Source of the DNA: Azolla caroliniana
Lineage: Eukaryota; Plantae; Polypodiophyta
Reading direction: 5' to 3'
Length of the DNA stretch: 64,000 nucleotides
Assembly: GCA_043228905.1 (NCBI GenBank)
Contig: JBHGNT010000062.1
Coordinates: 1 to 64,000, forward strand
The notes beneath the pieces were generated by a model that saw only the letters and a program-made list of their open reading frames with translations, was not told the origin of the DNA and did not search any database. Of this stretch, positions 3,801 to 64,000 are shown one piece after another. A program made the translations under genes and the position numbers. Each line of letters starts with the position of its first letter. The stretch's first letter is position 1.

Positions 3801-5786
3801 GTCGGTGAATCGGTGTACTATGCCAGCTGGATCTCGTAAACTTGGGTCTAACGTGACCCCCTTCATTCGTAACTCACTGCCCTCCGGCAAGGGTGCCGCG
3901 ACTGGCCTCACCTTCCGGTCCACAGTCTTGTACTTCGTATCCACTCGGGCCGTCCGATCCGACTCGAGTCCTCTACCGAAGTCGGCGACGACTTCGTACA
4001 TCTTTTCTGTACAGACCGGAATTGTCCAGTCTCCACTAAGGCCCTCTCCGAACACCTCCCGTAGCTTCCCCAAGGTGTCGTCGAAAGAGACTGCCTCCAC
4101 GGCTTCGTTGATGTCCTCTCCGGAGCTGAGGACTCCGTATGCCCTGAGTCGCTCTTCTGTCCGTTTCTTCTCCCAGCCAACGACGCCGGCTACTGTACAA
4201 CCTCTATTGTCGGAGAACCAAAACTTCCTACCTATGTTACAAGTTCTTTTGCCTACTGTACACGTGTGGGGTTTTTCCGGAGTGTCCGGACTATCACGGC
4301 CGCCGAGGGTCTCTCGGTTTCGTTCATGGTTCGGTCATACCGTCAGAAACTGGACAAAGTGACGCCCATCCTGGCTCTTGACTCGCGCGTATGCCGACCC
4401 GTTGTCGAGCTCCTTCGTCTCCATTTGTGCCGTTGTGATGTATGGTTCCCCGAGTATCACCGGATGCGATGATGTCTCCTGCACAAAGAAGTGTTGATCG
4501 ATCTTGACATCACCGATTTTCACTCGTACATTCGAGCCGGCTCCGTGTAGCTCCTTTGTGGCGCGCGTCGCCGCTTGTATTTTCCACCCATGCTTGGTGT
4601 TGATTGGCTACTTGCCCTTCCTGTAAAAGTCCATGGACATGAAGTTGATTTCCGAACCATGGTCTACCAACGCGACCACTGGCTCCTAAACATCTTTGAT
4701 CTTAACGGAGGTCTTCGTAGTGGCTCTGGCCCAATGTAGCCTTGAATAGTGGCTTTCTGCCAACTCGTCTTCCAGGGCCATGTCTTCTAGGTGCGTCATT
4801 CGCACCTCCACCGGCTTCTCCGGCTCCGGCTCTGTCAAAATCCTCTTCCGCTTCATCAAGTCTACGATGGAGTCGTGGAACTCCTTTTTGGCGATACCAA
4901 GCACTTCCCTCAGCGACAACTCCACTTTGCTGTCGAGGATCCATTCCTCCAGGACCTTTCGTAGGTCTGTGGTCCTTCCGATATTTGTGCTCAACCGGTA
5001 ACTGGCCTTCTTGGCCTTGTCTGGTGCGCCGGATGCACCGGCATCATTCTGCCTCAGCCCGAACCGGGTCTCATACCGTTGTGAGGGTCCAGCCCCTCCG
5101 GTCTTTCCCGCACGCTTCTCTTCCACCAGAACCTCGTAGTTTTGGCACGCGGCTTCTACGAAGCCCGTCCCACCCGTCTTTCCTCGCGGTCCGCTTCCTC
5201 TTTCCTCAATCGTACGCCGGCGAGGCCTTCTAGCATCAACGGCCAGAACCCGGAGTCCTTCGTCTTCCGGACTTTGTCGCTCCCGACCCGGATTCCCGCC
5301 GACGCCGAGTAGTGGACAATCTCCGCGTGGCGAGCCACCGCTTCATTTCCCCCCCCACGTGGTGAAGTGTTCTTCAAACTCCCAGAGGAGCACCGACGTG
5401 TTTCTCCCCTTTTCGGGGGTCTCCACCCATTCCATGATGTCCCACTTCAATAGCCGAAGCGCATCATCAAGCCTGTATTTCTCAAGGAGTCGACCTTCAA
5501 ATTCTTCCCAGGTCCGGCCCTCAGCCCGTACCTCGAGCACCTCCACATGGATGCTCGGCATTGCCACCCGAGGGAATCCAGCCAGTCGCCTGTCCTCCAG
5601 AATGTCCCTCATCACCAATTCGTCTCAATAGGCCTCCAAATAGCTTGTGGCGTCCTTTCCACCAAACCGGCCTATCGTGCCGACGATCACTTCAATGGCC
5701 CTATCGAGGGCACCTGTGCCTTCGTGCACACTCACTATTTGATCCACAGCTGAAGCCATGGCTTCTGCAAGCTCCGATCCCCTCAT
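881..5786 (-). pseudogene. Disrupted gag-pro and pol (RT-RH-IN) of the G1 copy
   Basis: ORF fragments 881-1213, 1337-1729, 1898-2479, 2531-2743, 2797-3438, 3451-3729, 4335-4523, 4686-5126 and 5343-5618 are colinear with G1b. Deletions in gag (~5350) and across the gag/pol junction (~4300). Confidence 0.9.
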
Positions 5787-44753: not shown

Positions 44754-46880
44754 CTAAAAATCCTCTCGGCTTTCGCCCTCGAGGGTCTCAAGGTTCCGCT
44801 CATGGTTCGGTCTCACCGTTAGGAACTCGACCGAGTGACGCCCATCCTGGCTCTTGACCCTTGCATAGGGCGAGCCGTTGTCTAGCACCTTGGTCTCCAT
44901 CCGTGTTGCCGTGATGTACGGTACTCCTAGTATAACCGGATGTGAGGACGTCTCCTGCACGAGGAAGTGTTGATCTATCTCGACATCGCCAATCTTTACT
45001 CGTACATTCAGGCAGGCTCCATGCAGTTCTTCGGTGGCACGCATCGTTGCCCGTATTTTCCACCCGTGCTTGGTGTTGATCGGTCATTTCCCTTTCTTAT
45101 AGAAGTCCATGGACATCAAATTGATTTCTGAACCGTGGTCCACCAACGCCACCACCAGTTCATGAACATCTCCGATCTTCACGGGGGTCTCCGTGGTCGC
45201 TCTGGCCCAGTGCGGCCGCGAATAGTGGCTCTTTGCCAACTCGTCTTCCAGCGCCATGTCCTCTATGTGCGTCGCCCGCACCTCCACTGGCTTCTTTGGT
45301 TCTGTCTCCGTCGACAGCCTCTTCCTCTTCACCAAGTCTACGATGGAGTCGTGGAACTCCTTCTTGGCGATCCCGAGCACTTACCTCGGCGACAGGTCCA
45401 CCTTGCTGTCGAGGATTCGTTCTTCCAAGACCTTTCGCAAGTCCATGGATCTTTTGATTTCTGTGCCCAGGCGGTACCCGCCCCTCTTGGGATTATCCTG
45501 GGCGCCGGTTACACCGGCCTCATTACGTCTTTGCCCAAATCGAGTTTCATATCGTTGTGAGGACTTGGCCCCCCCGGTTTTCCCTACCCGCTTGTCCTCC
45601 ACCAGAGCCTCGTAGTTTTGACAAGCGGCTTCGACGAAGCCCGTCTTTTCTTCCACCGGGTCACTCCACCGGGTCACCTCCCGGACCCATTTTTCAGCGC
45701 GGTCCGCCTCTTCTTTCCTTAGTCGTGCGCCGGCGAGGCCTTCTAGCATCGTCGGCCAGAACCCAGCTTTGCTCGTCTTCGGGGCCTCGCCACCTCTGAC
45801 CCGAATAATAGCTGACACTGAGTAGTGGACGGTCTCCGCGTGACAAGCCGCCGCCTCCTCCATCAGCCTTTTCATACCCCCTCGCCCGACGTTCAAGTCC
45901 AGGGGCCTTCGGGTTTCGCTGTCGTGCATCAGACCGTTCCACAGGTACACCACGTTGCTTCTCATCGCCTCGGCGAAGTCCCCGCAGTCCTTCCGGATGT
46001 GGCCAACCGCGTCACACCACATGCACTTGTTTCCAGCCAGAGGTCGTCGGTCACGGCCCTGTTCACTACCGTCCCTCCATGCCTGGGCGATCTGGAGATC
46101 CTTTACCATCCGCATCAGTTCCTCCAGAGCTACTCCCCCAGACGAGCCCTTGATCATGCCAGTCGAAGCCGATCCGGTCTCGAGCCAATCTCGGGTCTCT
46201 TCCCTTCGCGTTGGTGGCGTTGGCTCGAGCTTCCTCGCTGTGACAGAGCCCGCCCCTGTCGATCCTTTGTCAACCCATTCCCGTCGTTTGTCGAAACGGC
46301 CACAGACCCTTTTCACCACGGCCCAGTCGGCCGTCAGCCCTTCATCAGTCTCCAATAGGAGGCCTACCTGCTCCCAATCCCGCTCATCAACTAACTTAAC
46401 AAACAATAGGACACGGCTTGTGCCCAGAACGGTCCAATCAAGCACCGAGAGGCGCGCGAAGCGTTCCTCAAACTCCCGGAGGAGCACCGACGCGTTCCTT
46501 CCTTTGTTGGGGGTCTCCACCCATCCCAGCAAGTCCCGCCTCGAAAGTCGAAGTGCATCTTCAAGCCCGTATTTTTCGAGGAGCTGACCTTCGAACTCCT
46601 CCCAGATCCGGCTCTCGGCCCGTACCTCAAGCACCTCCGTATGGATACCCGGCATCGCCACTCGAGGGAATCCGGCTATACGCCTCTCTTCCGGAATGTC
46701 CCTCATTACCATCTCAGCCTAGTAGGACGCCAAGTACCTTATGGCATCCTTCCCACTAAATCGGCCGATCGTACCGACAACCGCCTCGATAGCCCTATCA
46801 AGGGCATCGGTGCCTTCGCGCGCACTCACTATACGGTCCACAACCGAAGCCATGGCTTCTGCAAGGTCCGACCCCCTCAT
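44754..46880 (-). pseudogene. G1a gag-pro, duplicate copy with premature stops
   Basis: ORFs 45381-46712, 45084-45380 and 44754-45044 match 48680-50806 at an offset of 3926 bp. Confidence 0.9.
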
Positions 46881-48679
46881 CTTCTACTCCTCTGCCGCCT
46901 CATCACGTCAGGTTCACCAAATATGTCGCGTTGGTACGCGCGTGCATGGAGAACAAGGCGGGACCACTGGGGTCTTGGACCGAGGAATAAGTGAGAAGAG
47001 GCAGAGAGAGAGAGAGAGCGAGAGAGCGAGATATGCGCACACACGTATGGACAAAGAAGCGCACGGGGACGCGGCCCAACAACACAGGAGACACGAGTTG
47101 AGAATGCTAGCGTATGTATATAAATATGTGTATGTATTTGTATGTATGCAGACAACTCGAACGGTTACAGCCGATCAGGTCGGCGAGATGGATGTGGGCG
47201 CCTGATCACCCACGCACACAGGAGAGCAAGATGGAGATTCTGCCGGAAGCACACGGGCTTTCCACGGAGCAGGATCAGCCTCCTGAGAACCTGCGCAAAA
47301 GAAAGCTATGGAGAACGATAGAGAAGAAGAGCTCGGACCCAGTCCGACAGCACTTCGTCCCCTCTAGCGCGCAATACCTTCTCTCCCCCTTCTCCCTCTC
47401 TTTTATAGCTCAAGGAGGGAGGCCGTTTCATCGATGTGCGTCGCCACGATTTTCCGGCACCCGTCCGGTCCGATCGTCTCGTCCCTTTCCTCCACCGGGC
47501 ATCCCTTGATCGGGACATCGTCCAGGAACGGTATGGTGATGTCCGAGATACAATCCCTCAGTACCTTGTTCATTGCGTTCACCATGTGAGCCACCGAGTT
47601 CGTCCCTCCTTGTGGTAGGGTACACATCCGTACTAGACCGAGAGGAGTTCGCATTGTCGTGATGTCTCTACTCTCTATGGCTAGCTGGAACTGATCGTAC
47701 CCCGAGTACAGATCACCGACCGAGTAAATCGACCTTTCGGCGAAGGCCTCCGCAAACTCGTCTATTGTCAGTCCGATTCCTGCATTTCGAATGGTCACCT
47801 TGTTGACCGGGTGCAGGTCTTCAATAAAGCGTAGCGTGCCGTCCTTCTTCGGCAAGGTAAACCACCGATTCGAGTATAGGGCACTTGACGGTTCGAGGAT
47901 TCCCATCTCGACCTTCTGCTTTAACAACTCCATCAGCTTCGGGATGTGAGCTCTGGGTACTGGAATCGGTTTGAGACTCCAACGCACATGCGGTACCGTT
48001 AATATCACCATCGGTTCCACGATTGTCGGGGCAGTGCACCCGATCTCCTCCGGTGAGAATGTGAAAGCCTTCCCGTGCCTTCCGAGCATTCCCCGAAAAC
48101 GGTCCTCTTCCGCCAGCAGTAGGAAGCCGCCCCCACCAATTTTGAGCTCGCAGCGTTATGTCGGTGAACGTGTGTCCTATGCAGGCCGAAGTTCGTAAAC
48201 TCGGGTCCGATGCAACCCCCTTTTTTCGCAACTCGCTGCCCTCCGGCAAGGGAACCGCGACTAGCCTCACCTCTCGGTCCACAGTCTTGTACCTCGTGTC
48301 CACCCGGGCCGTCCGATCCAACTTGAGCCCTCTACTGAAGTCCGCGATGACTTCATACATCCTTTCCGAACATACCGGAATCGTCCGGTCCTCTTTAAGG
48401 ACTCCTCCGACTACCTCTCGCAGCTCCCCCAAGGTATCGATGAAAGAGACCGCCTCCACGGCTCCGTTGATTTCCTCTCCAAGGCCGAGGATACCACATG
48501 CCCGAAGTTGCTCCTCCGCCCTTTTCTTCTTCTTGCCAACAACGTCGACTATCGTACACCCTCCGTTGTCGGAGAACCAAATTTCCTACTTATAGTACAG
48601 GTCTTCTTTGCTATCGTACACTTGTGGGGTTTTCCCGGAGTGTCCGGACTATCGCGGCCCCATGCCTTGATAGCCCTCT

Positions 48680-50806
48680 CTAAAAATCTTCTCGGCTTTC
48701 GCCCTCGAGGGTCTCAAGGTTCCGCTCATGGTTCGGTCTCACCGTTAGGAACTCGACCGAGTGACGCCCATCCTGGCTCTTGACCCTTGTATAGGCCGAA
48801 CCGTTGTCTAGCACCTTGGTCTCCATCCGTGTTGCCGTGATGTACGGTTCTCCTAGTATAACCGGATGTGAGGACGTCTCCTGCACGAGGAAGTGCTGGT
48901 CAATCTCGACATCGCCGATCTTGACTCGTACATTCGGGCAGGCTCCATGCAGTTCTTCGGTGGCACGTATCGCTGCCCGTATTTTCCACCCCTGCTTGGT
49001 GTTGATCGGCCATTTCCCTTTCTTATAGAAGTCCATGGACATCAAATTGATTTCTGAACCGTGGTCCACCAACGCCACCACCAGTTCATGAACATCTCCG
49101 ATCTTCACGGGGGTCTCCTTGGTCGCTCTGGCCCAGTGCGGCCGCGAATAGTGGCTCTTTGCCAACTCGTCTTCCAGCGCCATGTCCTCTATGTGCGTCG
49201 TCCGCACCTCCACCGGCTTCTTTGGTTCTGTCTCCGTCGACAGCCTCTTCCTCTTCACCAAGTCTACGATGGAGTCGTGGAACTCCTTCTTGGCGATCCC
49301 GAGCACTAACCTCGGCGACAGTTCCACCTTGCTGTCGAGGATTCGTTCTTCCAAGACCTTTCGTAGGTCCATGGATCTTTTGATTTCTGTGCCCAGCCGG
49401 CACCCGCCCCTCTTGGGATTATCCTGGGCGCCGGTTACACCGGCCTCATTTCGTCTTTGCCCAAATCGAGTTTCATATCGTTGTGAGGACCCGGCCCCTC
49501 CGATTTTCCCTACCCGCTTGTCCTCCACCAGAGCCTCGTAGTTTTGACAAGCGGCTTCGACGAAGCCCGTCTTTTCTTCCACCGGGTCACTCCACCGGGT
49601 CACCTCCCGGACCCATTTTTCAGCGCGGTCCGCCTCTTCTTTCCTTAGTTGTGCGCCGACGAGGCCTTCTAGCATCGTCGGCCAGAACCCGGCTTTGCTC
49701 GTCTTCGGGGCCTCGCCACCTCCGACCCGAATACTAGCTGACACTGAGTAGTGGACGGTCTCTGCGTGACAAGCCGCCGCCTCCTCCATCAGCCTTTTCA
49801 TACCCCCTCGCCCGACGTTCAGGTCCAGGGGCCTTCGGGTTTCGCTGTCGTGCACCCGACCGTTCCACAGGTACACCACGTTGCTTCTCATCGCCTCGGC
49901 GAAGTCCCCGCAGTCCTTCCGGATGTGGCCAACCGCGTCACACCACATGCACTTGTTTCCAGCCAGAGGTCGTCGGTCACGGCCCTGTTCACTACCGTCC
50001 CTCCATGCCTGGGCGATCTGGAGATCCTTTACCATCCGCATCAGTTCCTCCAGAGCTACTCCCCCAGACGAGCCCTTGATCATGCCAGTCGAAGCCGATC
50101 CGGTCTCGAGCCAATCTCGGGTCTCTTCCCTTCGCGTTGGTGGTGTTGGCTCGAGCTTCCTCGCTGTGACAGAGCCCGCCCCTGTCGATCCTTTGTCAAC
50201 CCATTCCCGTCGTTTGTCGAAATGGCCACAGACCCTTTTCACCACGGCCCAGTCGGCCGTCAGCCCTTCATCAGTCTCCAATAGGAGGCCTACCTGCTCC
50301 CAATCCCGCTCATCAACTGACTTAACAAACAATAGGACACGGCTTGTGCCCAGAACGGTCCAATCAAGCACCGAGAGGCGCGCGAAGCGTTCCTCAAACT
50401 CCCGGAGGAGCACCGACGCGTTCCTTCCTTTGTTGGGGGTCTCCACCCACTCCATTAAGTCCCGCCTCGAAAGTCGAAGTGCATCTTCAAGCCCGTATTT
50501 TTCGAGGAGTCGACCTTCGAACTCCTCCCAGATCCGGCTCTCGGCCCGTACCTCGAGCACCTCCGTATGGATACCCGGCATCGCCACTCGAGGGAATCCG
50601 GCTAGACGCCTCTTTTTCGGAATGTCCCTCATTACCAACTCAGCCCAGTAGGACGCCAAGTAGCTTGTGGCATCCTTCCCACTAAATCGGCCGATCGTAC
50701 CGACAACCGCCTCGATAGCCCTATCAAGGGCGTCGGTGCCTTCGCGCGCACTCACTATACGGTCCACAACCGAAGCCATGGCTTCTGCAAGGTCCGACCC
50801 CCTCAT
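48680..50806 (-). CDS. gag: Uninterrupted Gag-protease polyprotein (708 aa) of G1a
   Basis: IGRFSGKDATSYL capsid-like start, CX2CX4HX4C knuckle CMWCDAVGHIRKDC, aspartic-protease-like LVDHGSEINLM and VILGEPY, ending REDF*. Confidence 0.88.
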   Translation of the reverse strand: MRGSDLAEAMASVVDRIVSAREGTDALDRAIEAVVGTIGRFSGKDATSYLASYWAELVMRDIPKKRRLAGFPRVAMPGIHTEVLEVRAESRIWEEFEGRLLEKYGLEDALRLSRRDLMEWVETPNKGRNASVLLREFEERFARLSVLDWTVLGTSRVLLFVKSVDERDWEQVGLLLETDEGLTADWAVVKRVCGHFDKRREWVDKGSTGAGSVTARKLEPTPPTRREETRDWLETGSASTGMIKGSSGGVALEELMRMVKDLQIAQAWRDGSEQGRDRRPLAGNKCMWCDAVGHIRKDCGDFAEAMRSNVVYLWNGRVHDSETRRPLDLNVGRGGMKRLMEEAAACHAETVHYSVSASIRVGGGEAPKTSKAGFWPTMLEGLVGAQLRKEEADRAEKWVREVTRWSDPVEEKTGFVEAACQNYEALVEDKRVGKIGGAGSSQRYETRFGQRRNEAGVTGAQDNPKRGGCRLGTEIKRSMDLRKVLEERILDSKVELSPRLVLGIAKKEFHDSIVDLVKRKRLSTETEPKKPVEVRTTHIEDMALEDELAKSHYSRPHWARATKETPVKIGDVHELVVALVDHGSEINLMSMDFYKKGKWPINTKQGWKIRAAIRATEELHGACPNVRVKIGDVEIDQHFLVQETSSHPVILGEPYITATRMETKVLDNGSAYTRVKSQDGRHSVEFLTVRPNHERNLETLEGESREDF

Positions 50807-51894
50807 CTTCTACTCCTCTGCCGCCTCATCACGTCAGGTTCACCAAATATGTCGCGTTGGTACGCTTGTGCATGGAGAACAAGGCGGGACCACTGGGGTC
50901 TTGGACCGAGGAATAAGTGAGAAGAGGCAGAGAGAGAGAGAGAGCGAGAGAGCGAGATACGCGCACACACGTATAGACAAAGAAGCGCACGGGGACGCGG
51001 CCCAACAACAGAGGAGACACGAGTTGAGAATGCTAGCGTATGTATATAAATATGTGAATGTATTTGTATGTATGCAGACAACTCGAACGGTTACAGCCGA
51101 TCAGGTCGGCGAGATGGATGCCGGCGCCTGATCACCCACGCACACAGGAGAGCAAGATGGAGATTCTGCCGGAAGCACACGGGCGTTCCACGGAGCAGGA
51201 TCAGCCTCCTGAGAACCTGCGCAAAAGAAAGCTATGGAGAACTTCTTCCCCTCTAGCGCGCTGTCGTGAAGAGAACCGTCCACAAGCGGAATCGGTGCAC
51301 AGGAGCGTAGGAACCGGCTCTTCTCGAATGTTGCCCATAGAAGATCCTAGGCAGGTATATTTAGTGGGTAGGAAGAAAGGGGGGCAACGGCTCCTTCCTT
51401 GCCTATAAAAGGAGGGAGACGAGAAAGGGGGAGGGGATCGGGGAGAGTCGAGGACGAAGTGTTGTCGGTTTGTGTGCGAAGGCTTCTCTCTCTCTCTCTG
51501 GTTCGCAAACTCCATAGCTTCCTTCTATGAAGGTTTCGGGAGGCTCGCACTGCTCTGAGGAATGCCCGAGTGCTTCCGGCAGCACCTCCGACCTGCTCCT
51601 GTCTTTCTGTGCGTTTACGAACAGGCATCGGCATTTGTTCGCCGGCCTATTCGGTTGTAACCGACTTTGTGTTTTTGTTGCTTCCGTGTTCTTGTTGTTG
51701 TCTTGTTAATATATACATACATTCGTGTCTCTCCGTGTCGCTGTCCCACTCGCGTCTTTGTGTTGAAGGGCCGCGTCCCTGTGAATCTACGCTTGCACGT
51801 AGTGGGTCTCTTGTCCCTTCTCTCTTGCTCTTCGGTACAGGACCCCTGAGGTCCCACCTCATTCCACGCATCCGCGAGGAAAACCTCGACATCT

Positions 51895-51912
51895 TGGTGA
51901 ACCCGACGTGAA
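51895..51912 (+). promoter_or_regulatory. Primer-binding site, tRNA-Trp (18 nt)
   Basis: TGGTGAACCCGACGTGAA is the complement of ..TTCACGTCGGGTTCACCA, the plant cytosolic tRNA-Trp 3' end as I recall it. Confidence 0.82.
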
Positions 51913-51934
51913 GGAGGTGGCAGAAGAGCAGAAG

Positions 51935-54061
51935 ATGAAAGGGTCGGATCTTGCAGAGGCCATGGCTTCGGCCGTGGATCGGATATTGAGTCTACGCGAG
52001 GGCACCGGCGCCCTCGACAGAGCCATTGAGGCGGTCGTCGGTACGATCGGCCGGTTCAGCGGAAAGGATGCCACGAAGTATTTGGCGTCCTACGGGGCAG
52101 AAATGTTGATGTGGGATATTCCGAAAGAGAGGCTTCTTGCCGGGTTTCCTCGAGTGGTGATGCCGAGCATCCATGCGGAGGTGCTCGAGGTGCGGGCGGA
52201 GAGCCGTACCTGGGAGGAGTTCGAAGGCCGACTCCTAGAAAAATACGGGCTGGACGACGCGCTCCGGCTTTCAAAACGGGACTTCATGGAATGGGTGGAG
52301 TCCCCCGGCAAGGGAAGAAACGCGTCGGCACTCCTCCGGGAGTTCGAAGAACGCTTTGCGCGCCTTTCGGCGCTTGACCGAACCGTTCTGGATACGAGCT
52401 GGGTCCTATTGTTCGTCAAGTCGGCGGATGAGCGGGACAGAGATCAAGTCGGCTCCTTGCTGGAAACCGAAGACGGGCTGACAACCGACTGGGCTGCGGT
52501 TAAGAGAGTCTGTGGCCGTTTCGACAAACGGCGAGAATGGGCTGACAACGGGGCGGCCGGCGCAGGCTCTGTCACAGCAAGGAGGCTTGAACCGGCACCA
52601 CAAGTACGAAGGGAAGAAACCCGGGAATGGCTCGAAACCGGTCCGGCTTCGACCGGCATGGTCAATGGCTCGTCCGGACGAGCAGCGCTGGAGGAGTTGA
52701 CGCGGGCGATAAAGGATCTCCAGATCGCCTAGACTCGAAGGGAAGGCGGCGAACCGGCTCGTGACCGACGACCGGCAGCGGGGAACAGGTGCATGTGGTG
52801 CGACGATGTCGGCCACATTCGGAAGGACTGCGGCGATTTCGCAGAGGCGTTGAGGAACCGGGTGGTGTACCTGTGGGAAGGCCGGGTGCACACCGGCGAC
52901 ACCAGGAGGGCCCGGAACCGAAACGACGGGCGAGGAGGTATGAAGAGACTGATGGAAGAGGCAGCGGCCCGACACGTAGAGGCCATCCACTACTCGGCAT
53001 CGGCCGGAATTCGGGTCGGGGGCAGCGAGGCCCGAACAGAGGGCAAAGACGGATTCTGGTCGGCAATGCTGGGAGGTCTTGCCGGCGCACGGCTAAGGAA
53101 AGATGAAACGGACCACGCTAAGAGACGGGTCCGGGAAATAACCGGGTGGAGCGATCCGGTCGAGGAGAAGACGGGCTTCGTAGAAGCTGCCTGCCGGAAC
53201 TACAAGGCTTTGGTAGAAGACAAATGAGTGGGGAAAGCCGGAGCGGCCGGGCCCTCACAACGGTACGAGATCCGATTCGGGCAACGACGGAACGATGCTG
53301 GCGGGTCCAGCTCGCAAGATAACCCCAGGAAGGGCGGATACTGATTGGGGACGGAAATAGAAAGGACTACGGACCTACGAAAGGTCCTAGAAGAATGGAT
53401 CCTCGACAGCAAAGTGGAGCTGTCATTGCGGGAGGTGCTAGGGATCGCCAAGAAGGAGTTCCACGACTCCATTGTAGACTTGGTGAAACGGAAGAGGCTG
53501 TTGACGGAGACGGAACCGGAAAGACCGGTAGAGGTGCGAACGACGCACATCGACGACTCGGCGCTGGCAGATGAGTGGGCGGAGAGCCACTATTCGAGGC
53601 CACACTGGGCCCGAGCGACCACGGAGACCCCGGTAAAGATCGGAGATGTTCAGGAACCGGTGGTGGCATTGGTGGACCACGGTTCGGAAATAAACCTGAT
53701 GTCCATGGACTTCTATAAGAAGGGGAAGTGGCCGATCAACACCAAGCACAGGTGGAAGATACGGGCGGCGACGCGCGCCACCGAGGAACTGCATGGGGCC
53801 TGCCCGAACGTGCGAGTCAAGATCAGCGACGTCGAGATTGACCAGCACTTCTTCGTACAGGAGACGTCCTCGCACCCGGTCATATTAGGTGAACCATACA
53901 TCACGGCGGTGCGGATGGAGACCAAAGTGTTGGACAATGGGTCGGCCTACGCGAGGGTCAAAAGCCAGGACGAGCGCCATTCGGTCCAATTTCTGACGGT
54001 GCGGCCGAACCACGAGAGAAACCATGAATCCCTCAGTGGCGAGAACCGGGAGGATTTTTAG
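51935..54061 (+). pseudogene. gag: G1b gag-pro (708 codons, three in-frame stops, no net frameshift)
   Basis: Same length (2127 nt) as 48680-50806. Stops at 52730, 53225 and 53342. Confidence 0.9.
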
Positions 54062-54116
54062 AGAGGGCTGCCAAGGCATGGGGCCGAGACAGCCCGGACA
54101 CTCGGAAAGGACCCCA
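54052..54116 (+). promoter_or_regulatory. Putative -1 ribosomal frameshift signal (G_GAT_TTT, 6-nt spacer, stem-loop or pseudoknot)
   Basis: The -1 frame is open from the heptamer into the RT ORF. GGGCTG 54065-70 pairs with CAGCCC 54090-95, and TGGGG 54079-83 with CCCCA 54112-16. Confidence 0.72.
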
Positions 54117-57100
54117 CGACTGTACGATAAGTAGGAAATTCTGCTTCTCCAACAACGGAGGGTGTATGATAGTCGGCATCGTCGGCCGAGAAAAGGCAAG
54201 GGCGGAGGAGCGACTTCGAGCGTGCGGAGTTCTCGGCCCGGACGAGGAAATCAGCGGGGCCGTGGAGGCGGTCTCCTTCGACGACACCTTGGGGATGCTG
54301 AGGAAGGTAGCCGGAGAAGACCTTAACGAAGACCGGATGATACCGGTATGTTCTGAAGAGATGTACGGAGTCATCGCGGACTTCAGTCAGGGGCTCGGGT
54401 CGGATCGGACAACCCGAGTTAGCACGAAGTACAAGACTGTGGACCGGAAGGTAAGGCCAGTCGCGGCACCCTTACCGGAGGGCAGCGAGTCCCGAATCAG
54501 AGGGGTTGCGTCGGATCCCAGTTTACGAGATCCGGCCTGCATAGGACACACCTTCACCAACGGGACGCTCCGGGAGCTCAAAATCGGTGGGGGCGGGTTC
54601 CTACTGCCGGCGAAGGAAGACCGGTTTCGGAGAATGCTCGGAAGGCACGGGAAAGCCTTCGCATTCTCGCCGGAAGAGATCGGGTGCGTAGACCCGACAA
54701 TCGTGGAGCCGATGGTGATATTCATGGTACCGCATGTGCCGTGGAATCTCAAGCCCATTCCGGTACCAAGAGCTCACATCCCGAAGTTGATGGAGCTATT
54801 GAGGCAAAAAGTCGATATGGGCATTCTCGAACCGTCGAGTGCCCCATACTCGAACCGATGGTTTACCGTACCAAAGAAAAACGGAACAATGCGCTTCATT
54901 CAGGACCTGCAGCCGGTCAACAGAGTGACCGTTCGGAACGCAGGAATTAGACCGACCATAGACGAGTTCGCAGAGGCCTTGGCCGGAAGGTCGATTTACT
55001 CGGTCGGTGATCTGTACTTGGGGTACGACCAGTTCCAGCTAGCCGTGGAGAGCAGAGACATTACGACGATGCGAACCCCCCTCGGCCTAGTGCGAATGTG
55101 TACCCTGCCACAAGGAGGGACCAACTCGGTAGCCCACATGGTGAATGCAATGAACAAGGTACTGAGGGATTGCATCCCGGACATCACCATGTCGTTTCTA
55201 GACGACATCCCGATCAAGGGGTGCCCGGTGGAGGAGAAGGACGAGACAGTCGGGCCGGACGGATGCCGGCGATTCGTGGCGACACACATCAACGACTGCG
55301 AGAAGGTGCTACAAAGGCTAGAGGATGCGAGGCTCACCTTCTCCGGGGAGAAATCGGCCTTCGGGCAATCGGAAATCCTAGTGGTCGGACACCTATGTGG
55401 ACCATATGGCCGGAAGCAGTCTCCGGCAAAGGTAGAAGCCATCTCCGCGATGAAGACCGACTGTAGCTCGGTTACGGAAGTTCGGAGGTTCCTGGGGGCA
55501 TGCGCATTCTACCACATATGGATCCCGCATTACGCCCACGTTGCGGAGCCGCTATACGGGTTGCTGAAGAAAGGGCGAAAATTCGAATGGCGAGACGAGC
55601 ACACGGAGTCGGTCCGGAAGCTGAAGGAAGCTCTTGCGGTAGCACCGGCGCTTCGGAAGGCTGTCTATGGGAAGGGTACCCCGGTATACATAACAGTGGA
55701 TACGAGTCCGACCGGGATCGGATGGGTCGTCAACCAAGAGGACAAGAACGGCATTCGGTTCCCGATCCGATTCGGCGTGAAGGTCCTCAGTGAACGACAG
55801 CGAGGGTACGCCCAGGTTAAACGCGAACTCTGGGGTATCGTTTCGGCAGTAAAGGCCGACAAAGACTACCTGATCGGGGCAGAAGTGGTTATCGAGACGG
55901 ATTGCCTGCCGATTCTCGGCATGGTTTCCGGATGCGCGACACCGGACCTGGCGATGCTCTGGTAGATAGCGTACATCAAGTCCCTGGACCCGGAAATACG
56001 GCACATTTCCGGAAAGGACAACGCCATGGCCGACATGCTTTCGAGGGCGAGGTTTGATGACGAGGGTGGCATGGTTTCGGAGGACGAAGAAGTCGGCGTG
56101 GACTTCTTCGAGGCGGCGTACGTAACGACCGATGGGACGAGCACTCCGGCACTTAACGACTTCGACGAGAGCAGGTACGATGGCGAGTGGCTCCAGATCG
56201 GTGGATATTTGAGGACAATGACACCGGATGCGTCATGGACGAAGGACGAGGCCAACCGGATCCGAAAGAAAGCATACCGATTCTTTCTCCGGGATGGACA
56301 CTTATGGAAGCACCCGAAGAAGAGGAACGGCGTCCCGCTCCGGGTGGTGGCGATGAAGGAAGAACAAGAGGAGCTGCTGACGGCCTACCACGACAGCCCT
56401 TGGGCTGGACACCGTGGAACGTGGGCCACGTTCGAGAAGATAAAGGGGAAGTACTGGTGGCCAGGACTGTACCGGGACGTGCATCGGTTCGTGACAACTT
56501 GCGAGAGTTTTCAGATGCACTCCATAGTCCGACATCGGGAGGAGCTTCACCCTACGTATCCTCCGACCATCCACTTCAAATGGATGGTAGATCTAGTGAC
56601 GATGCCGATGGGAGGAGGACAGATGCGGTATCTGGTCCTGGCTCGGGAAGATCTGACGAACCAGGTGGAAGGCTGAGCCCTTCAGAACCAAACGGCTGCG
56701 GCCGTATGTCGGTTCCTGATCGAGGACGTGATATGCCGGTACGGGTGCGTCGGGAAGATCGTGCCTGATCGCGGGGAGTTGGACGCCGAAGAGGCCGAGG
56801 AGCTGTTCGACCGGCTAGGAGTCAAGCTTTCGCTTACCACTGCGTACAATCCGGAGGCAAATGGGAAGGTGGAGCGCGGACACGGACCGATCATCAAGGC
56901 GTTAGTTCGGGCATGCGGAGGTCAAGTCGGGAACTGGCCGCGGCTGCTGCCTTACGCGTTGTGGGCGGACCGAACTACGCACAGTTCGGTAACCGGATTC
57001 ATGCCGGTAGAACTCATGTTTGGGCAGAAGCTGGTCATGCCGATGGAACGTACGATCTCCTCATGGGCAACCGTGGACTGGAGAGACGAGATGAGCCGGG

Positions 57101-57525
57101 AGGAACTACTGGCGGCGCGTATACGACAGCTCAAGCGAAGACCGGAGGACGTGGAGCAGGCTGCGGAAAAGCTTCGGGAAGCAAGGATGAGGAACAAAGC
57201 CCGGTTCGACCGAACGCACCGGCTCCGACCGAAGAAGATTGAGGAAGGCGACTGGGTGCTAGTCTACAACAGCAGCCTTCACAACCAGCACCGAGCGACA
57301 CGGAAGTTCGCAAGAAGGTGGTTCGGGCCTTACGTGGTACAAAGCGCCAACGACAACGGGACATACCATCTGGCGGAACTCGACGGTACGAGAATGGCGA
57401 TACCGGTAGCGGGGAAGCAGATCAAAGCGTTCAAGAAGCGTCACGACGACGAGCCGGATCCGGTTGGCCTGGACCGCGACGACGAACGATCCGAAACCGA
57501 GGAAGAACCGACGGGCGGGGAATGA
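54058..57525 (+). pseudogene. pol: G1b pol (linker, RT, RNase H, integrase with GPY/F, no chromodomain), two in-frame stops
   Basis: ORFs 54166-55965, 56026-56676 and 56728-57525 share one frame. LPQGGTNS, FLDD, YHDSPWAGH..TCES, AYNPEANGKVERGH, RWFGPY. Confidence 0.92.
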
Positions 57526-58136
57526 CGGCTGGACCGGTTTTCTCCGTCCCAACTCAATTTGGCGCATGCCGGTGGATGCGCGGTTAGGTGGGGGCGTATG
57601 TCGTGAAGAAAACCGTCCACAAGCGGAATCGGTGCACAGGAGCGTAGGAACCGGCTCTTCTCGAATGTTGCCCATAGAAGATCCTAGGCAGGTAGATTTA
57701 GTGGGTAGGAAGAAAGGGGGGAAACGGCTCCTTCCATGCCTATAAAAGGAGGGAGACGAGAAAGGGGGAGGGGATCGCGGAGAGTCGAGGACAAAGTGTT
57801 GTCGGTTTGCGTGCGAAGGCTTCTCTCTCTCTCTCTGGTTCGCAAACTCCATAGCTTCCTTCTATGCAGGTTTTGGGAGGCTCGCGCTGCTCTGAGGAAT
57901 GCCCGAGTGCTTCCGGCAGCACCTCCAACCTGCTCCTATCTTTCTATGCATTTACGAACAGGCATCGGCATCTGTTCGCCGGCCTGTTCGGTTGTAACCG
58001 ACTTCGTGTTTTTGTTGCTTCCGTGTTCTTGTTGTTGTCTTGTTAATATATACATACATTCGTGTCTCTCTGTGTCGCTGTCCCACTCGCGTCTTTGTGT
58101 CGAAGGACCGCGTCCATGTGAATCTACGCTCGCACG

Positions 58137-61100
58137 TGTTGAGAATCAACGCTTCGATTCACCTTCTTCACTCGGCCACAACCGAGTAATTGCGGATCAA
58201 TGGAGCAGAAAATAGGAACCAAAAAAAGAAATACACGAGTACACAGTGATTAACGTGGAAAACCCTAGATGGGAAAAACCACGGGAGTACAAGACTCCAA
58301 ACAACACTATACAAAGAGAAGTATACAATGACGAGCTCCAAGGCGACAACCTTGAGCTCGCTGTCCTCGCCACAGGCGGCGGAAATACACAGAGGCGTCG
58401 TCCTCTTCCTCTCTCGCGCTCTATCTCTCTCTCTCTCTCTCTCACGGCTGCTTACTCTTCACTCCTCTTGAGTGGAAAAAACAGAAAAATGAGAAGCAAC
58501 GACAAAACAGTTTGCCCTAAGTCATATTTATACTCATATGACTTTGGGCTATTTACAACTGTAGCCTCAGGGGCCCATAGCGAACATATTCACGGATATG
58601 TCCCTGCATCCGGATCGCTCTCCGGGTACATTCGTCATCCGGTACCGAAACCGGGGTCTTCGTCATCCGGATCCGAAACCGACAACCGGATCCGACCATC
58701 CCATCCGAAGGGACCGTAATCCCAACAAACTCCCCCTTCACTTCGGCATGGGATGTTTCTCCAATCCGATCCTCTTCCGGCATGCTTCCAGCTTGTCGGG
58801 TGTGAGCACCTTGGTCAGCATATCCGACCCGTTCTCGTCCGTGTGGATCTTCGTCAGCACGAACTCCTTGTCTTCTATCCTTTCCCGGATCCAGTGATAT
58901 CTTCGCTGGATGTGCTTCGTCCGGGAGTGATAGGCCGCGTTCTTTGCAAGGTGGATTGCACTCTGACTGTCGCAGTAGAGTCGGTACTCCTCCTGCCGGA
59001 TACCGAGCTCTCTAATGAAGTCCTTCATCCATATTATTTCCTTGCCGGCTTCAACAGCCGCCATGTACTCCGCCTCCGTGGTTGACAACGCAACCGTCTT
59101 CTGCAGCCTCGACTGCCACGAAACAGCTCCCCCTGCATACGTCATCACATACCCTGATGTGGACCGGCTGGTATCTGCATCAGCCGACATATCAGAATCA
59201 GTAAAGCCTTCGAGTTCGGGCTTACCGGAGCCGAATCGGAGGCACACGTTTGCCGTGCCCTTCAGGTATCGGAGTATCCACTTGACCGCGTTCCAGTGCT
59301 CTTTGCCGGGATTGCTCATGTACCGGCTCACCACTCCGACTGCATATCCTATGTCCGGTCTCGTACACACCATGGCGTACATCAAGCTCCCGACGGCTGA
59401 GGCATACGGCACTTCCATCATATCCTCCTTTTCAGCCTTTGTCTTGGGACTTTGCTTGCTGGTCAGCTTGCAGTTTGTCGGGAGGGTCGATCCGACCGGT
59501 CTCGCTTCCGACATGTTGAACCGGTGAAGCACCTTCGTCACGTACTTCTCCTGTGACAGCCCCAACTGCTTCTTCTTCCGGTCCCGGATGATGTGCATCC
59601 CTAGTATTTGCCTCGCCGGACCCAGGTCCTTCATTGAGAAGGTTCGGTGAAGAGCCTTCTTCAGCATCCGTATCTTGACCTGGTCCCGTCCGACGATCAA
59701 CATGTCGTCCACGTACAGGAGGAGTATTAGAGAGTCTCCTCCTTCGAACTTCTTCACAAACACGCAGTGGTCGGACTGCGTTTTGAGGTACCCTTCGTCG
59801 GTCATGAAGGAGTCGAACTTCCGGTACCATTGCCGGGGAGCCTGCTTCAGTCCGTAAAGGCTCTTCTTCAACCGGCATACCAGGTGCTCCTTCCCTTTCT
59901 TCTCGAATCCTTCCGGTTGCTGCATGTAGATCTCTTCATCGAGGTCACCGTGAAGGAATGCCGTCTTCACGTCCATCTGTTCTACCTCGAGGTCCATGCT
60001 TGCCGCTATGCTCAGCACCGTCCGGATAGAGGTCATCTTCACTACCGGGGCAAATATCTCGTCGAAGTCGACGCCCTTCTTCTGCTGAAACCCCTTCACC
60101 ACGATCCTGGCTTTGTATCTCGGGGGGTTTCCGGCATCTCCCGGTTTCAGCTTGAACACCCACTTGTTTCGAAGTGCCCGCTTTCCTTTCGGCAACTCCA
60201 CAAGTTCATATGTGTGGTTCTCATGCAGGGAATCCATCTCGTCCTGCATGGCACTCAACCACTTGCGGCTCTGGGTGTCATGCTTTGCTTCTTCAAAGCT
60301 CTCCGGCTCCCCCTCGTCGGTTAGTAGCACGTGCTCTGGTTCCGGAAATCTCCGGGGGGCCCTTCTCTCTCTTAGAGGATATCTCCGTTCCGGAGCTTCG
60401 GTAACCGGTTCTCCCGATTCTTCTTCTTCATCCGAATCCATTTCGGGATCGGGAACGGTTCCGGTATCATTTTCATCTTCCTCGGCCGGTTCTCTTTCTT
60501 CACCGTCTTCGGCCGGATCCTCGAGTGCTAACCGGTCCCTTGCCGGTCGGGACTGCTCCTCGTAGAGTTTATCCTCACCAGTCGACTTGGAGCTCTTCAT
60601 CTTCTTCTCCGACTCCCAGTCGGTGAGTGTCTCGTCCTCCATAAAGACGATATCTCGACTCCTGAATATCTTCTTGTCGACCGGGTCCCATACTCGGTAG
60701 CCGAACTCGTCGTCGCCGTAACCGAGGAATATGCATGGCCGGGTCTTCGGATCTAGCTTTCCTCTCCGGTCCTTCGCCACGTGCACGTATGCGAGACACC
60801 CGAACACCTTCAGATGCCGGTAGGATACTTCCCTACCGGTCCACACTCTCTGCGGCGTGTCTCCGTCCAAAGGTACTGAGGGTGATCTGTTTATCACATA
60901 TGTCGCCGTCGACATTGCCTCAGCCCAAAATCCCTTGGGTAATTTCGCATGTGCCAGCATACTCCGGACCCTCTCCATTATGGTCCGGTTCATCCTCTCG
61001 GCCAGCCCGTTCAGTTCCGGCGTCTTCGGCACAGTAAATTCGAGTCGGATTCCCTTCGAGCGACAGTACTCCTGGAACTGCCCCCGGTATTCCCCTCCGT

Positions 61101-63434
61101 TATCCGCTCGTATTGCTTTCAGCTTCTTGCCGGATTCTCTTTCCACTCTCGCGTGGAGTTCTTTGAAGACGCACAACACTTGGTCCTTTGTCTTCATCGG
61201 TGCCGTCCACAGTTTTCGGCTATGATCATCGATGAATGTTACGAAGTACTGGGCTCCGCCATGTGACTTCGTTTCTACTTGACACACGTCCGTGTGCACC
61301 AACTCCAATGGTGCACTGCGTCTCGTCGGTGGCCTTGAGTGGAAGGAAGTTCGGTTCTGCTTACCGGCCAGGCAATCGGTGCACTTCTCCAGGTGCACAT
61401 GCTTCACTGGGATAAGGTTGTCTTCTGCAAGCCTCTTCATCCCCTTCTCACTCATGTGGCACAGTCTTTTGTGCCACAGCTCACCGGCAGTGTCGGCTGC
61501 CACGTTCAGCTCTTCCGGACACAACCAGGCATTCATCAGGTACAGTGTGTTGACCTTCCGGGCCCGAGCCACTATCAAGCTCCCCTTGCTGAACTTCATG
61601 ACACCGTTCCGGATGCTACCCGTGTAGCCTTCATCATCTAGCCTCCCGGCCGAAATCAGGTTCAGTCGGACCTCCGGAACGTGTCGGACATTCTTCAGCA
61701 GCATTTTGCATCCGGTCGGGGTTGTCAACCACACGTCTCCTATGCCGGCAATCCGGCACGTACCTTCGTTTCCCATCCGAACGCAGCCATGCTCCCCGGC
61801 TGTGTAGGATGAGAAGTATCTTCTCTCCGGGGTCAGGTGGAACGATGCTCCGGAATCGACCACCCAGGTCGTCTCATCGCCGGCAATGTTTAGCTCACCT
61901 TCTTCGGTGATGAGCATGATTTCTTCTTCACTTGCCGCGAGTGCCGTCGTTCCTTTCCGGTCCTGCCCTCGCCGATCCGAACCTCTCCGGTCCGTGGCTC
62001 CCCGGTATGCACCGTTTCTCTCCGGTGACTTCTTCGAATCGGTGTCGTCGGCTCCGTTGTCTTTTCGGTAATGCCGACAGTTCTTTCGGAAGTGCCCCGG
62101 CTTCCCACAGTGGAAGCATGTGGGCCTTCCTCTTGACTGCGACCGGGTCCCCGACTTCTCCCGTCTTTGCGGACTCCGGTTCCATTGTCTTCCCCGATCC
62201 GATTCGGTAAATAGCATCTTCGGTTCGGAGGCCGGTTCCTTGTCTCTCCGACGCGCTTCTTCGTTCAAGATACTTGTCTTTACCGTTTGCAAGGACAAGT
62301 TATCTTCGGTGCAGGAGGTGCTGAGAGTCACCACCAAGTTCTCCCAGCTGTCCGGCAATGTACACATCAAGATGATGGCTTGCATTGCATCCTCCAGCGG
62401 GAACTTGATCGCCGCAAGCTGATTCACGAATCCCATGAACGTGCTTACGTGTTCCACCATACTCTCGCCGTCCCGGTACTTGAGATTCACAATCTTCCTC
62501 ATCAGGGAGGTCCGGTTCAACGCATTCTTCCTCTCGTAGAGGCCCGACAGCTTCTTCCACATTTCATATGCGTTGGTGTCGTTCGCCACATGTTGTAGGA
62601 CGCTTACATCGACATATTGTCGGATCGTTGCTACGGCTTTCCGGTTCAGGAGCTTCCACTCCGACTCAAGTACCCCCTTCGGTATTTCCGACCTGTCAAT
62701 CGGTTCGTACAGGTCCCGAACAATCAGAAGATCCTCCATCTTGATCTTCCAGTCGGCGTAATTCTGTGCGTTCAGCACCATCATCCCCGGCTGCCCGCTG
62801 CCGCCGCCTTCCATTTTCTGCAACAGTCGCTCTGATACCAGTTTGTTGAGAATCAACGCTTCGATTCACCTTCTTCACTCGGCCACAACCGAGTAATTGC
62901 GGATCAATGGAGCAGAAAATAGGAACCAAAAAAAGAAATACACGAGTACACAGTGATTAACGTGGAAAACCCTAGATGGGAAAAACCACGGGAGTACAAG
63001 ACTCCAAACAACACTATACAAAGAGAAGTATACAATGACGAGCTCCAAGGCGACAACCTTGAGCTCGCTGTCCTCGCCACAGGCGGCGGAAATACACAGA
63101 GGCGTCGTCCTCTTCCTCTCTCGCGCTCTATCTCTCTCTCTCTCTCTCTCACGGCTGCTTACTCTTCACTCCTCTTGAGTGGAAAAAACAGAAAAATGAG
63201 AAGCAACGACAAAACAGTTTGCCCTAAGTCATATTTATACTCATATGACTTTGGGCTATTTACAACTGTAGCCTCAGGGGCCCATAGCGAACATATTCAC
63301 GGATATGTCCCTGCATCCGGATCGCTCTCCGGGTACATTCGTCATCCGGTACCGAAACCGGGGTCTTCGTCATCCGGATCCGAAACCGACAACCGGATCC
63401 GACCATCCCATCCGAAGGGACCGTAATCCCAACA
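58137..63434 (-). mobile_element. Copia C (Tork/Tnt1-like), intact, 591-bp LTRs, 5-bp TSD GCACG
   Basis: LTRs 58137-58727 and 62844-63434 look identical. iMet PBS 62829-62840. PPT 58730-58741. TSD at 58132-58136 and 63435-63439. Confidence 0.97.
58738..62814 (-). CDS. gag-pol: Intact Gag-Pol polyprotein (1358 aa from ATG 62814): Gag, zinc knuckle, PR, IN, RT, RH
   Basis: CFHCGKPGHFRKNC, WVVDSGASFH, WHKRLCH..CTDC, LVHTDVC, RADNGGEY, LLYVDDMLI, GFTDSD, TEAEY, TKHIQRRYH. Confidence 0.96.
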   Translation of the reverse strand: MEGGGSGQPGMMVLNAQNYADWKIKMEDLLIVRDLYEPIDRSEIPKGVLESEWKLLNRKAVATIRQYVDVSVLQHVANDTNAYEMWKKLSGLYERKNALNRTSLMRKIVNLKYRDGESMVEHVSTFMGFVNQLAAIKFPLEDAMQAIILMCTLPDSWENLVVTLSTSCTEDNLSLQTVKTSILNEEARRRDKEPASEPKMLFTESDRGRQWNRSPQRREKSGTRSQSRGRPTCFHCGKPGHFRKNCRHYRKDNGADDTDSKKSPERNGAYRGATDRRGSDRRGQDRKGTTALAASEEEIMLITEEGELNIAGDETTWVVDSGASFHLTPERRYFSSYTAGEHGCVRMGNEGTCRIAGIGDVWLTTPTGCKMLLKNVRHVPEVRLNLISAGRLDDEGYTGSIRNGVMKFSKGSLIVARARKVNTLYLMNAWLCPEELNVAADTAGELWHKRLCHMSEKGMKRLAEDNLIPVKHVHLEKCTDCLAGKQNRTSFHSRPPTRRSAPLELVHTDVCQVETKSHGGAQYFVTFIDDHSRKLWTAPMKTKDQVLCVFKELHARVERESGKKLKAIRADNGGEYRGQFQEYCRSKGIRLEFTVPKTPELNGLAERMNRTIMERVRSMLAHAKLPKGFWAEAMSTATYVINRSPSVPLDGDTPQRVWTGREVSYRHLKVFGCLAYVHVAKDRRGKLDPKTRPCIFLGYGDDEFGYRVWDPVDKKIFRSRDIVFMEDETLTDWESEKKMKSSKSTGEDKLYEEQSRPARDRLALEDPAEDGEEREPAEEDENDTGTVPDPEMDSDEEEESGEPVTEAPERRYPLRERRAPRRFPEPEHVLLTDEGEPESFEEAKHDTQSRKWLSAMQDEMDSLHENHTYELVELPKGKRALRNKWVFKLKPGDAGNPPRYKARIVVKGFQQKKGVDFDEIFAPVVKMTSIRTVLSIAASMDLEVEQMDVKTAFLHGDLDEEIYMQQPEGFEKKGKEHLVCRLKKSLYGLKQAPRQWYRKFDSFMTDEGYLKTQSDHCVFVKKFEGGDSLILLLYVDDMLIVGRDQVKIRMLKKALHRTFSMKDLGPARQILGMHIIRDRKKKQLGLSQEKYVTKVLHRFNMSEARPVGSTLPTNCKLTSKQSPKTKAEKEDMMEVPYASAVGSLMYAMVCTRPDIGYAVGVVSRYMSNPGKEHWNAVKWILRYLKGTANVCLRFGSGKPELEGFTDSDMSADADTSRSTSGYVMTYAGGAVSWQSRLQKTVALSTTEAEYMAAVEAGKEIIWMKDFIRELGIRQEEYRLYCDSQSAIHLAKNAAYHSRTKHIQRRYHWIRERIEDKEFVLTKIHTDENGSDMLTKVLTPDKLEACRKRIGLEKHPMPK

Positions 63435-64000
63435 GCACGTAGTGGGTCTCTTGTCCCTTCTCTCTTGCTCTTCGGTACAGGACCCCTAAGGTCCCGCCTC
63501 ATTCCACGCATCCGCGAGGAAAACCTCGACAGCGCGATACCTTCTCTCCCCCGTCTCCCTCTCTTTTATAGCTCAAGGAGGGAGGTCGTTTCACCCGTTT
63601 ACATCACATTAATTCTCTGTCCTTTCGGACAGAGATACTCCTCGATTTCCCCTATAGAATATTGCTACCTAGGATTTGACCTTTGTGCCTACCTATCCAC
63701 TATACAACAAGGGGCATGCCCACGTGTAAGGGCCGGTTCACACACACCATACACGGTTTGCGCCTGGGGACGGTTTTCTTCACGACAACGTCATTACGAA
63801 TGCCTCTCGTAAGAACGAGCTCATGGTGGCATCGTATCCATGTAACGAGGGAGGGATGTTGGATACGTGTGTCATTGGAGCGACCTCACTTGAAGTCGGT
63901 CAAGCCCTACGTACTCAACATCATTATGGCTATAGGCGTTTCTTTACGTAACGAAATCGAGGTCATCAACAGGGTTGTCAACAATCAAAAATTGTTGAAA

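Follow-up and report, generated by a model that had tools for sequence, protein, structure and literature searches.

The 64,000-nt stretch of Azolla caroliniana DNA analyzed here (contig JBHGNT010000062.1; called the window, to which all coordinates without a locus name refer) is a nest of long terminal repeat (LTR) retrotransposons. One of these, a Ty3/gypsy element on the plus strand at 51262-63531, carries a short cassette where its gag-protease (Gag-PR) open reading frame (ORF) meets its pol frame, which encodes reverse transcriptase, RNase H and integrase (RT-RH-INT). In all probability this cassette is a signal for pseudoknot-stimulated programmed -1 ribosomal frameshifting between the two frames. 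An earlier note on the window had proposed programmed -1 frameshifting here, and a survey of related elements supports that reading. The standard features of a -1 signal are present: ORFs that overlap in the -1 register, a heptamer of the X XXY YYZ type in the 0 frame, and a structure 5-9 nt downstream. This layout agrees with the textbook signal of heptamer, 5-9 nt spacer and structure (PMC7618472; this and the other papers are cited from the parts of their text that were available). Some umbraviruses and dianthoviruses have the known variant G_GA in the place of X_XX, and pea enation mosaic virus RNA2 (PEMV2) shifts at G_GAU_UUU (PMC5009743). The earlier note had assigned this heptamer to the dianthovirus red clover necrotic mosaic virus (RCNMV); the group of viruses was right, but in the available part of PMC5009743 the heptamer is printed for PEMV2 and not for RCNMV.

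In the proposed mechanism, ribosomes would decode GAU and UUU while pausing at a predicted H-type pseudoknot 6 nt downstream. A fraction of them would re-pair one base back, read Leu-Glu-Arg and continue through the linker into RT, RNase H and integrase; the remainder would stop at once and release Gag-PR. The trans-frame peptide expected from the window copy is EDFLER, as had been predicted. This would hold Gag-PR-RT-RH-IN at a low, set proportion relative to Gag-PR, with the protease at the level of Gag and RT-RH-IN alone rationed, like the '0/-1' pattern of Rous sarcoma virus (RSV; PMC1224870).

Slippery heptamer and reading frames

In the window copy the heptamer G GAT TTT stands directly before the gag stop TAG, and the -1 frame beginning at 54052 reads LERAAKAWGRD and enters RT; this frame is open for 637 codons downstream and for only 8 codons upstream. 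The heptamer, the stop and the open -1 frame had all been correctly located in the earlier note, which had also seen that one minus-strand unit reads A GAT TTT; this is the unit with its heptamer at 48689. A fifth copy of the cassette, near position 4300 on the minus strand, has lost the heptamer and most of the remainder by deletion. The element at 51262-63531 is itself dead, being broken by five premature stops (Table 1), and the window copy is thus a fossil of the mechanism used by its intact relatives. Chance as the origin of the cassette is excluded by data from the family, not by the window alone.

Relatives were collected in a metagenome scan, from which the best 80 of 164 confirmed loci were studied. 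The slippery site was found in 74 of the 80. Five loci lack it and were read as chimeric, deleted or truncated contigs, one ends before the site, and one ends just after it. The longest frame 3' to the site is the -1 frame at 56 of the 74 loci (with a pol frame of at least 1000 codons at 30 of these), the +1/-2 frame at 1, and frame 0 at none, so the one-frame arrangement of gag and pol that had been named as a counter-case does not occur among them. At the other 17 the longest downstream frame is below 150 codons, too short or too decayed to score. Heptamers were counted at the 77 sites with enough flanking sequence (73 loci and the 4 window copies) and are G GAT TTT at 69, G GAT TTC at 4, A GAT TTT at 2, and G GGT TTT and G GTT TTT at 1 each.

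Clustering at 85% gave 25 families; the decayed L044 was left out of the structure tests, which use 24. Across the 25 families, all 24 degenerate codons that contain the first heptamer position (they encode seven amino acids) have G there (9.6 expected), and all 23 Asp codons are GAT rather than GAC (14.0 expected), although these counts are inflated by kinship, since related families are not independent trials. The positions of the heptamer that are silent in the gag frame are fixed, a conservation beyond coding need. Upstream of the heptamer, 18 of 21 families have a pol-frame stop within 20 codons; the conserved residues of this frame start at the heptamer and continue through the linker. 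The gag stop varies; it can be TAG, TAA or TGA, or it can lie five codons past the heptamer, inside stem 1 of the structure described below, as in families L055, L076, L078 and L080. The late-stop families bear on whether the position of the stop affects shifting. Three other families, L056, L058 and L059, have tandem G GAT TTC heptamers four codons apart (L056:4780-4800), only the second of which is followed by a stem at the 6-nt spacing.

The same pattern is visible in protein sequences. Among 120 listed Gag-PR homologs of 152 found, 74 end in [DNG]F-stop and 15 in [DG]F-xxx-P[LF]-stop; rarer ends are [DV]F-xxx-LL-stop (3) and QVF[DY]-stop (2). The remaining 26 end otherwise, and 24 of these are Physcomitrium or Riccia gene models. 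We considered whether the P[LF]-stop endings mark a different heptamer and rejected this, as in the DNA the heptamer is unchanged and the stop follows five codons further on. Both of the common ends occur among Physcomitrium proteins, and Riccia and Adiantum proteins carry them too; distant homologs, at 37-44% identity, often have the same C-terminal ending. Physcomitrium, Riccia and Adiantum are the named sources of homologs of the lineage, while its closest relatives are metagenome proteins. Pol homologs mostly start as separate ORFs. A search of viral contigs gave no relatives of the cassette lineage, and a single match in a genome contig (L081) was discarded as chance, being surrounded by ordinary bacterial ORFs.

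The domain just before the gag stop is, on the evidence of a structure model, a protease. The model, with a predicted local distance difference test score (pLDDT) of 72, matches the Ddi1 RVP, XMRV and HIV proteases, with 103 fold matches at E <=0.001; a search of PDB sequences with the protease gave nothing useful. Retroviral proteases have Asp-Thr/Ser-Gly at the catalytic position. The window element has Asp-His-Gly (53675-53683), and His is found there in 112 of the 120 listed homologs, the motif being unmatched in the other 8. Pfam DUF4100 marks the Gag part 5' to the protease throughout the lineage (window 53345-53500 and homologs).

Another route to pol would be an intron that spans the gag stop and is spliced out of part of the transcripts, as happens in Ogre elements, and TTTTTAG does look like a splice acceptor. 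We consider this very improbable. The AG is at the stop in only 8 of 24 families, lies elsewhere in the spacer in 11 and is missing in 5, and a stop that varies between TAG, TAA and TGA or comes five codons later argues against an acceptor at this place. The ORFs overlap and are not spaced apart, and the linker has conserved pol-frame residues. RNA reads from two runs labeled as a related species (111 and 67) had no joint or indel at the site, a weak test in that some 13-16 and 7-9 reads cover 54017-54049, at 80-95% identity and from both strands about equally. Splicing had been raised in the earlier note as one way in which its proposal might fail; the family counts and the reads speak against it, the latter at low depth.

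An equally small probability attaches to a separate pol whose translation initiates internally, or reinitiates, at a linker Met, with the heptamer incidental. Most families have such a Met about 20-25 codons ahead of the RT motif. It is replaced, however, in L021, L056, L077 and L078, conserved pol-frame residues are found upstream of it, and initiation there would leave the fixed silent positions of the heptamer and the fixed spacer unexplained. Slippage of RNA polymerase on the T run, adding a base and fusing the frames in a subset of transcripts, seems marginally less probable still. Most copies do have a run of five T residues across the heptamer and stop, but the run is short and is interrupted in the G GAT TTC families (4 of the 77 sites), the reads just described are without indels (again at low depth), and a fixed spacer of ribosomal length between heptamer and stem fits translation. 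Ribosomal frameshifting accounts best for the frames and for the conservation of the site.

RNA structure 3' to the heptamer

The earlier note had placed a first stem 6 nt after the heptamer, and stem 1 is indeed there in the window copy (Table 1), with one C-A mismatch. In the minus-strand units at 48689 and 44763 the same stem is GGGCTATC/GATAGTCC. The compensatory change from G-C to A-T between these copies, which had been taken as structural covariation, is present, but it amounts to a single event because the two minus-strand units are 96.9% identical to each other. When compared with shuffled sequences, the 48k and 44k units fold better than the shuffles (z -3.07 and -3.62). The plus-strand copy at 29194 had been described as retaining and extending the helix between loop and downstream segment; it is a decay product, in which a 16-nt deletion has taken out the 3' arm of stem 1 and the -1 frame closes after 20 codons; it lends the helix no support.

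Covariation of stem 1 was measured in an alignment of 23 sequences; families L077, L078 and L080, which are not alignable by their letters, were left out of this alignment (A3). In it, 91.3% of the cells of stem 1 are paired, compared with 25-44% in slid controls, and 5 of 9 pairs have changed on both sides. None of 500 shuffles reaches the observed pairing or covariation score. One pair is found in A-U, G-U and G-C states among close copies, and RNAalifold finds the stem unaided. The distance from heptamer to stem 1 is fixed at 6 nt in the -1 families. A swap test between families, in which the arms had been chosen to pair, was biased and was replaced by versions with fixed columns. The long bulged hairpin that had been offered as an alternative fold did not survive as a conserved structure, since just 52% of the cells across families pair in its inner 3-bp helix. 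The cassette has no counterpart in Rfam, where the one match was far below the cut-off.

Stem 1 is established by its covariation; stem 2, and hence the pseudoknot, is likely, with covariation statistics that are moderate. The complementarity between the loop TGGGG and the downstream CCCCA, seen in the earlier note, is present in the window copy. In 20 of 21 alignable families the G-run in the loop of stem 1, which is nearly invariant, can form a helix of 4-8 bp with a segment 11-16 nt after stem 1. The mean energy of the duplex between loop and downstream segment is -10.75 kcal/mol, compared with -7.0 for shuffles and -3.2 to -6.7 for displaced windows; when partners are swapped between families it is -9.23 (P 0.0004, n=24). 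In L077, L078 and L080 other letters make up both stems and the spacing is kept, which is the best qualitative support for stem 2.

Several observations weigh against pseudoknot-stimulated frameshifting or against parts of it. Taken alone, the 54k copy folds no better than shuffles (z -1.24). The changes in the 3' arm of stem 1 mostly leave the Pol protein unaltered, so the stem 1 pattern is in part due to coding constraint. With fixed columns and without L077, L078 and L080, the stem 2 swap test weakens to marginal values (P 0.043, n=21; P 0.082, n=15); the cognate partner is the best partner in only 2 of 24 rows, and L007 has no convincing stem 2. The linker is free of pol-frame stops, a result partly built in by the choice of family representatives, which were picked for the longest open pol frame; three families with an unmatched motif or a broken frame were not scored for such stops. 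The DNA sample comes mostly from one assembly series, and the linker Met described above, which in most families recurs some 22 codons ahead of RT, belongs on this side as well.

The points on stem 2 leave some room for a variant that we count within the frameshifting explanation, namely that shifting is real and stimulated by the stem 1 hairpin by itself, with stem 2 absent or irrelevant. Besides the marginal swap test, chance easily gives pairing between a G-run and a C-run, and the folding programs used are unable to predict pseudoknots. We nevertheless regard the hairpin variant as rather unlikely, in view of the near-invariant loop, the regular position of the partner and the three distant families that rebuild stem 2 from other letters. 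The preferred stimulator of the -1 shift looks like a local H-type pseudoknot, and not like that of RCNMV, in which a stem-loop is combined with pairing to a site 4 kb away (PMC5009743).

A candidate -2 frameshift in a sister clade

Pol lies in the +1/-2 frame at a single locus, L050. There both ORFs are intact: Gag-PR, of 761 codons, ends CAG GTT TTT TAC TAG, and pol has 1106 codons; a stop closes the -1 frame after six codons. The spacer between heptamer and stem 1 is 5 nt long, compared with 6 nt in the -1 relatives, and a predicted pseudoknot follows. Two DNA runs gave contigs over L050 2494-2535, for which no indel is listed and whose loose ends resemble the Pol protein P0292. A second family, with a Gag-PR 74% identical to that of L050 (35 members), ends in QVFD-stop in 6 of 6 listed sequences that reach the end, and in a protease tree, drawn midpoint-rooted, it groups with L050 at 100/100 among -1 elements. 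P0292 (54 members, 81% identical) is the only other Pol found with the linker of L050. Of its 15 listed sequences, 6 start with MTRTV, and its alignment to L050 starts at position 2503 of the latter, which is the +1/-2 offset; if only the protein ends are considered, two -1 offsets fit as well, and its placement at +1/-2 rests on homology and is to that extent presumptive. P0144 and P0292 are a presumed pair. The viral contig search gave no match to the L050-type pattern.

Such a frame could be entered by a slip of two bases back or of one base forward, with predicted trans-frame peptides, QVFFTR and QVFTR in L050, that are one residue apart. Slipping by +1 on the U run would suit L050 itself but would suit the QVFD family poorly. 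For the -2 route there are precedents: GG_GUU_UUU is the -2/-1 site in the virus behind porcine reproductive and respiratory syndrome (PRRSV; PMC4937337), PMC5009743 names phage Mu, arteriviruses and Trichomonas vaginalis virus 1 as -2 cases, and the spacer that best suits -2 shifting is 1-2 nt shorter than the one for -1 (PMC3458567; PMC7618472). We put at about even the chance that a non-seed-plant lineage lives by a pseudoknot-driven -1 shift after the protease and that one of its branches switched to -2, through AG GUU UUU and a spacer reduced from 6 to 5 nt, with the pseudoknot kept. If true, nature would here offer a test of the mRNA-tension model along with a -2 retroelement, and the rule that a short spacer favours -2, known from engineered reporters, would become a natural evolutionary switch.

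Host element and comparison with known systems

Coordinates of the cassette, its host element and the homologous copies are given in Table 1. Without the Copia insertion in its 3' LTR the element is about 7.0 kb long. In one of the window's minus-strand units (48680-50809) the gag-protease ORF is open over 709 codons. The primer-binding site (PBS), the complement of which ends in CCA, is presumably of the tRNA-Trp type. Its exact complement is a small RNA annotated as miR894 and listed as matching gypsy PBSs (PMC5846777). This RNA is probably a tRNA 3' fragment.

Table 1. Positions of the frameshift cassette, its host element and homologous cassettes (window coordinates unless a locus is named)
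Feature	Position	Strand	Basis or remark
5' target-site duplication GCGC	51258..51261	+	4 bp, NCGN type; second copy at 63532-63535
5' LTR (TG...CA)	51262..51891	+	identity to split 3' LTR: 517/539 plus 95/97
Primer-binding site	51895..51912	+	identical motif in 39/80 loci
Gag-protease ORF	51935..54061	+	broken by stops at 52730, 53225, 53342
Putative retroviral-type aspartic protease domain	53600..54058	+	four Pfam aspartic-protease families, all below cut-off
Slippery heptamer G GAT TTT	54052..54058	+	read in sequence
6-nt spacer: gag-PR stop TAG (54059-54061) plus 3 nt	54059..54064	+	read in sequence
Stem 1, 5' arm GGGCTGCC	54065..54072	+	family covariation, RNAalifold
Stem 1, 3' arm GACAGCCC	54088..54095	+	family covariation, RNAalifold
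Stem 2, 5' arm TGGGG in stem 1 loop, predicted	54079..54083	+	loop-to-downstream pairing tests
Stem 2, 3' arm CCCCA, predicted pseudoknot partner	54112..54116	+	loop-to-downstream pairing tests
Pol in -1 frame (linker of about 130 codons, RT, RNase H, integrase)	54052..57525	+	broken by stops at 55963, 56674
3' LTR	57599..63531	+	split by Copia insertion 58137-63434, 5-bp duplication GCACG
Homologous cassette, tandem unit 1	48620..48689	-	A GAT TTT variant, heptamer at 48689
Homologous cassette, tandem unit 2	44694..44763	-	heptamer at 44763
Decayed cassette	29194..29255	+	heptamer kept; 3' arm of stem 1 deleted
Sister-clade cassette AG GTT TTT	L050:2496-2560		5-nt spacer, pol in +1/-2 frame; related proteins P0144, P0146, P0292, P0012

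The Copia element at 58137-63434 has an open ORF of 1375 codons and is a recent insertion, since its LTRs are identical over 300 nt. The minus-strand units, both internally deleted and both of the cassette lineage, form a tandem of two (42187-51239 and from 63536 onward) with common LTRs and a spacing of 3926 bp; the 54k element sits in one LTR of this tandem, in opposite orientation, at a GCGC site. A separate and more conventional gypsy remnant at 36893-40702 on the minus strand has clear Pfam protease, integrase and SH3 matches, and its Pol is about 25% identical to that of the cassette lineage.

Among described clades the element is best filed as Phygy-type, not as proven Phygy. As in Phygy (PMC6317226), the target duplication is a 4-bp NCGN sequence, here GCGC; the PBS, putatively for tRNA-Trp, would fit the type of that clade; there is no chromodomain, additional RNase H (aRH) or extra ORF (Pfam on window ORFs and P0292); and the coding region fills the internal part. 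Homologs are named from Physcomitrium, and in the protease tree the Physcomitrium proteins fall among these elements. It differs in that the ORF organisation of Phygy is tabulated as ND, whereas here GAG-PROT overlaps RT-RH-INT in the -1 frame; in the available part of PMC6317226, no row of the gypsy table lists such an overlap as prevailing. Phygy elements are also longer (7656-9968 bp, a range from P. patens, PMC6317226), and relatives of the window element occur in Riccia and Adiantum too.

The Tat elements Ogre and Retand share with the cassette lineage a polyprotein split between PROT and RT (PMC6317226). In Ogre the split is a spliced spacer averaging about 274 bp and in Retand a single in-frame stop; both carry aRH and, in the available part of that paper, neither is listed with overlapping frames. 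The intron between PROT and RT that marks Ogre-type elements is not found in the window lineage. With the alpharetrovirus RSV the plant element shares the shift after the protease ('0/-1' pattern, PMC1224870) and, if the prediction holds, a pseudoknot stimulator (PMC5009743). The lineages are unrelated and the RSV pseudoknot has a third stem; it should be noted that PMC5009743, in its available part, puts protease in pol for 'all these retroviruses', at odds with PMC1224870. PEMV2 and RCNMV are alike in having G_GAU_UUU (printed for PEMV2), a stop close behind and plant ribosomes (PMC5009743), but they combine a stem-loop with long-distance pairing, unlike the compact local pseudoknot predicted here, and there is no sign of shared descent.

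For L050 the nearest parallel is PRRSV nsp2TF, where GG_GUU_UUU compares with AG GTT TTT and a long ORF lies in the -2 frame (PMC4937337). PRRSV works without RNA structure, through a C-rich motif to which protein binds (PMC4937337), whereas L050 is a retrotransposon with a predicted pseudoknot. The spacer of L050, one base shorter than in its -1 relatives, differs in the direction reported to favour -2, an effect shown on an engineered U6A site (PMC3458567), unlike the natural site of L050.

No earlier description of the -1 cassette or of the -2 branch was found in the literature searched, from which subscription journals mostly fall outside, and the available parts of PMC7466625 and PMC2864245 have no passage on 'frameshift'. 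Plant -1 sites may exist elsewhere, since Tcn1 and Selgy are tabulated with overlapping gag and protease frames of unstated direction (PMC6317226). These elements are split by gene callers and wrongly fused in the gene models predicted for their plants, both of which the cassette explains, and its occurrence across moss, liverwort and fern elements amounts to a large natural library of variants for plant recoding. Set beside the known systems, the signal is of a classical type; its setting in a plant retrotransposon, after the protease, and the possible switch to -2 appear to be new.

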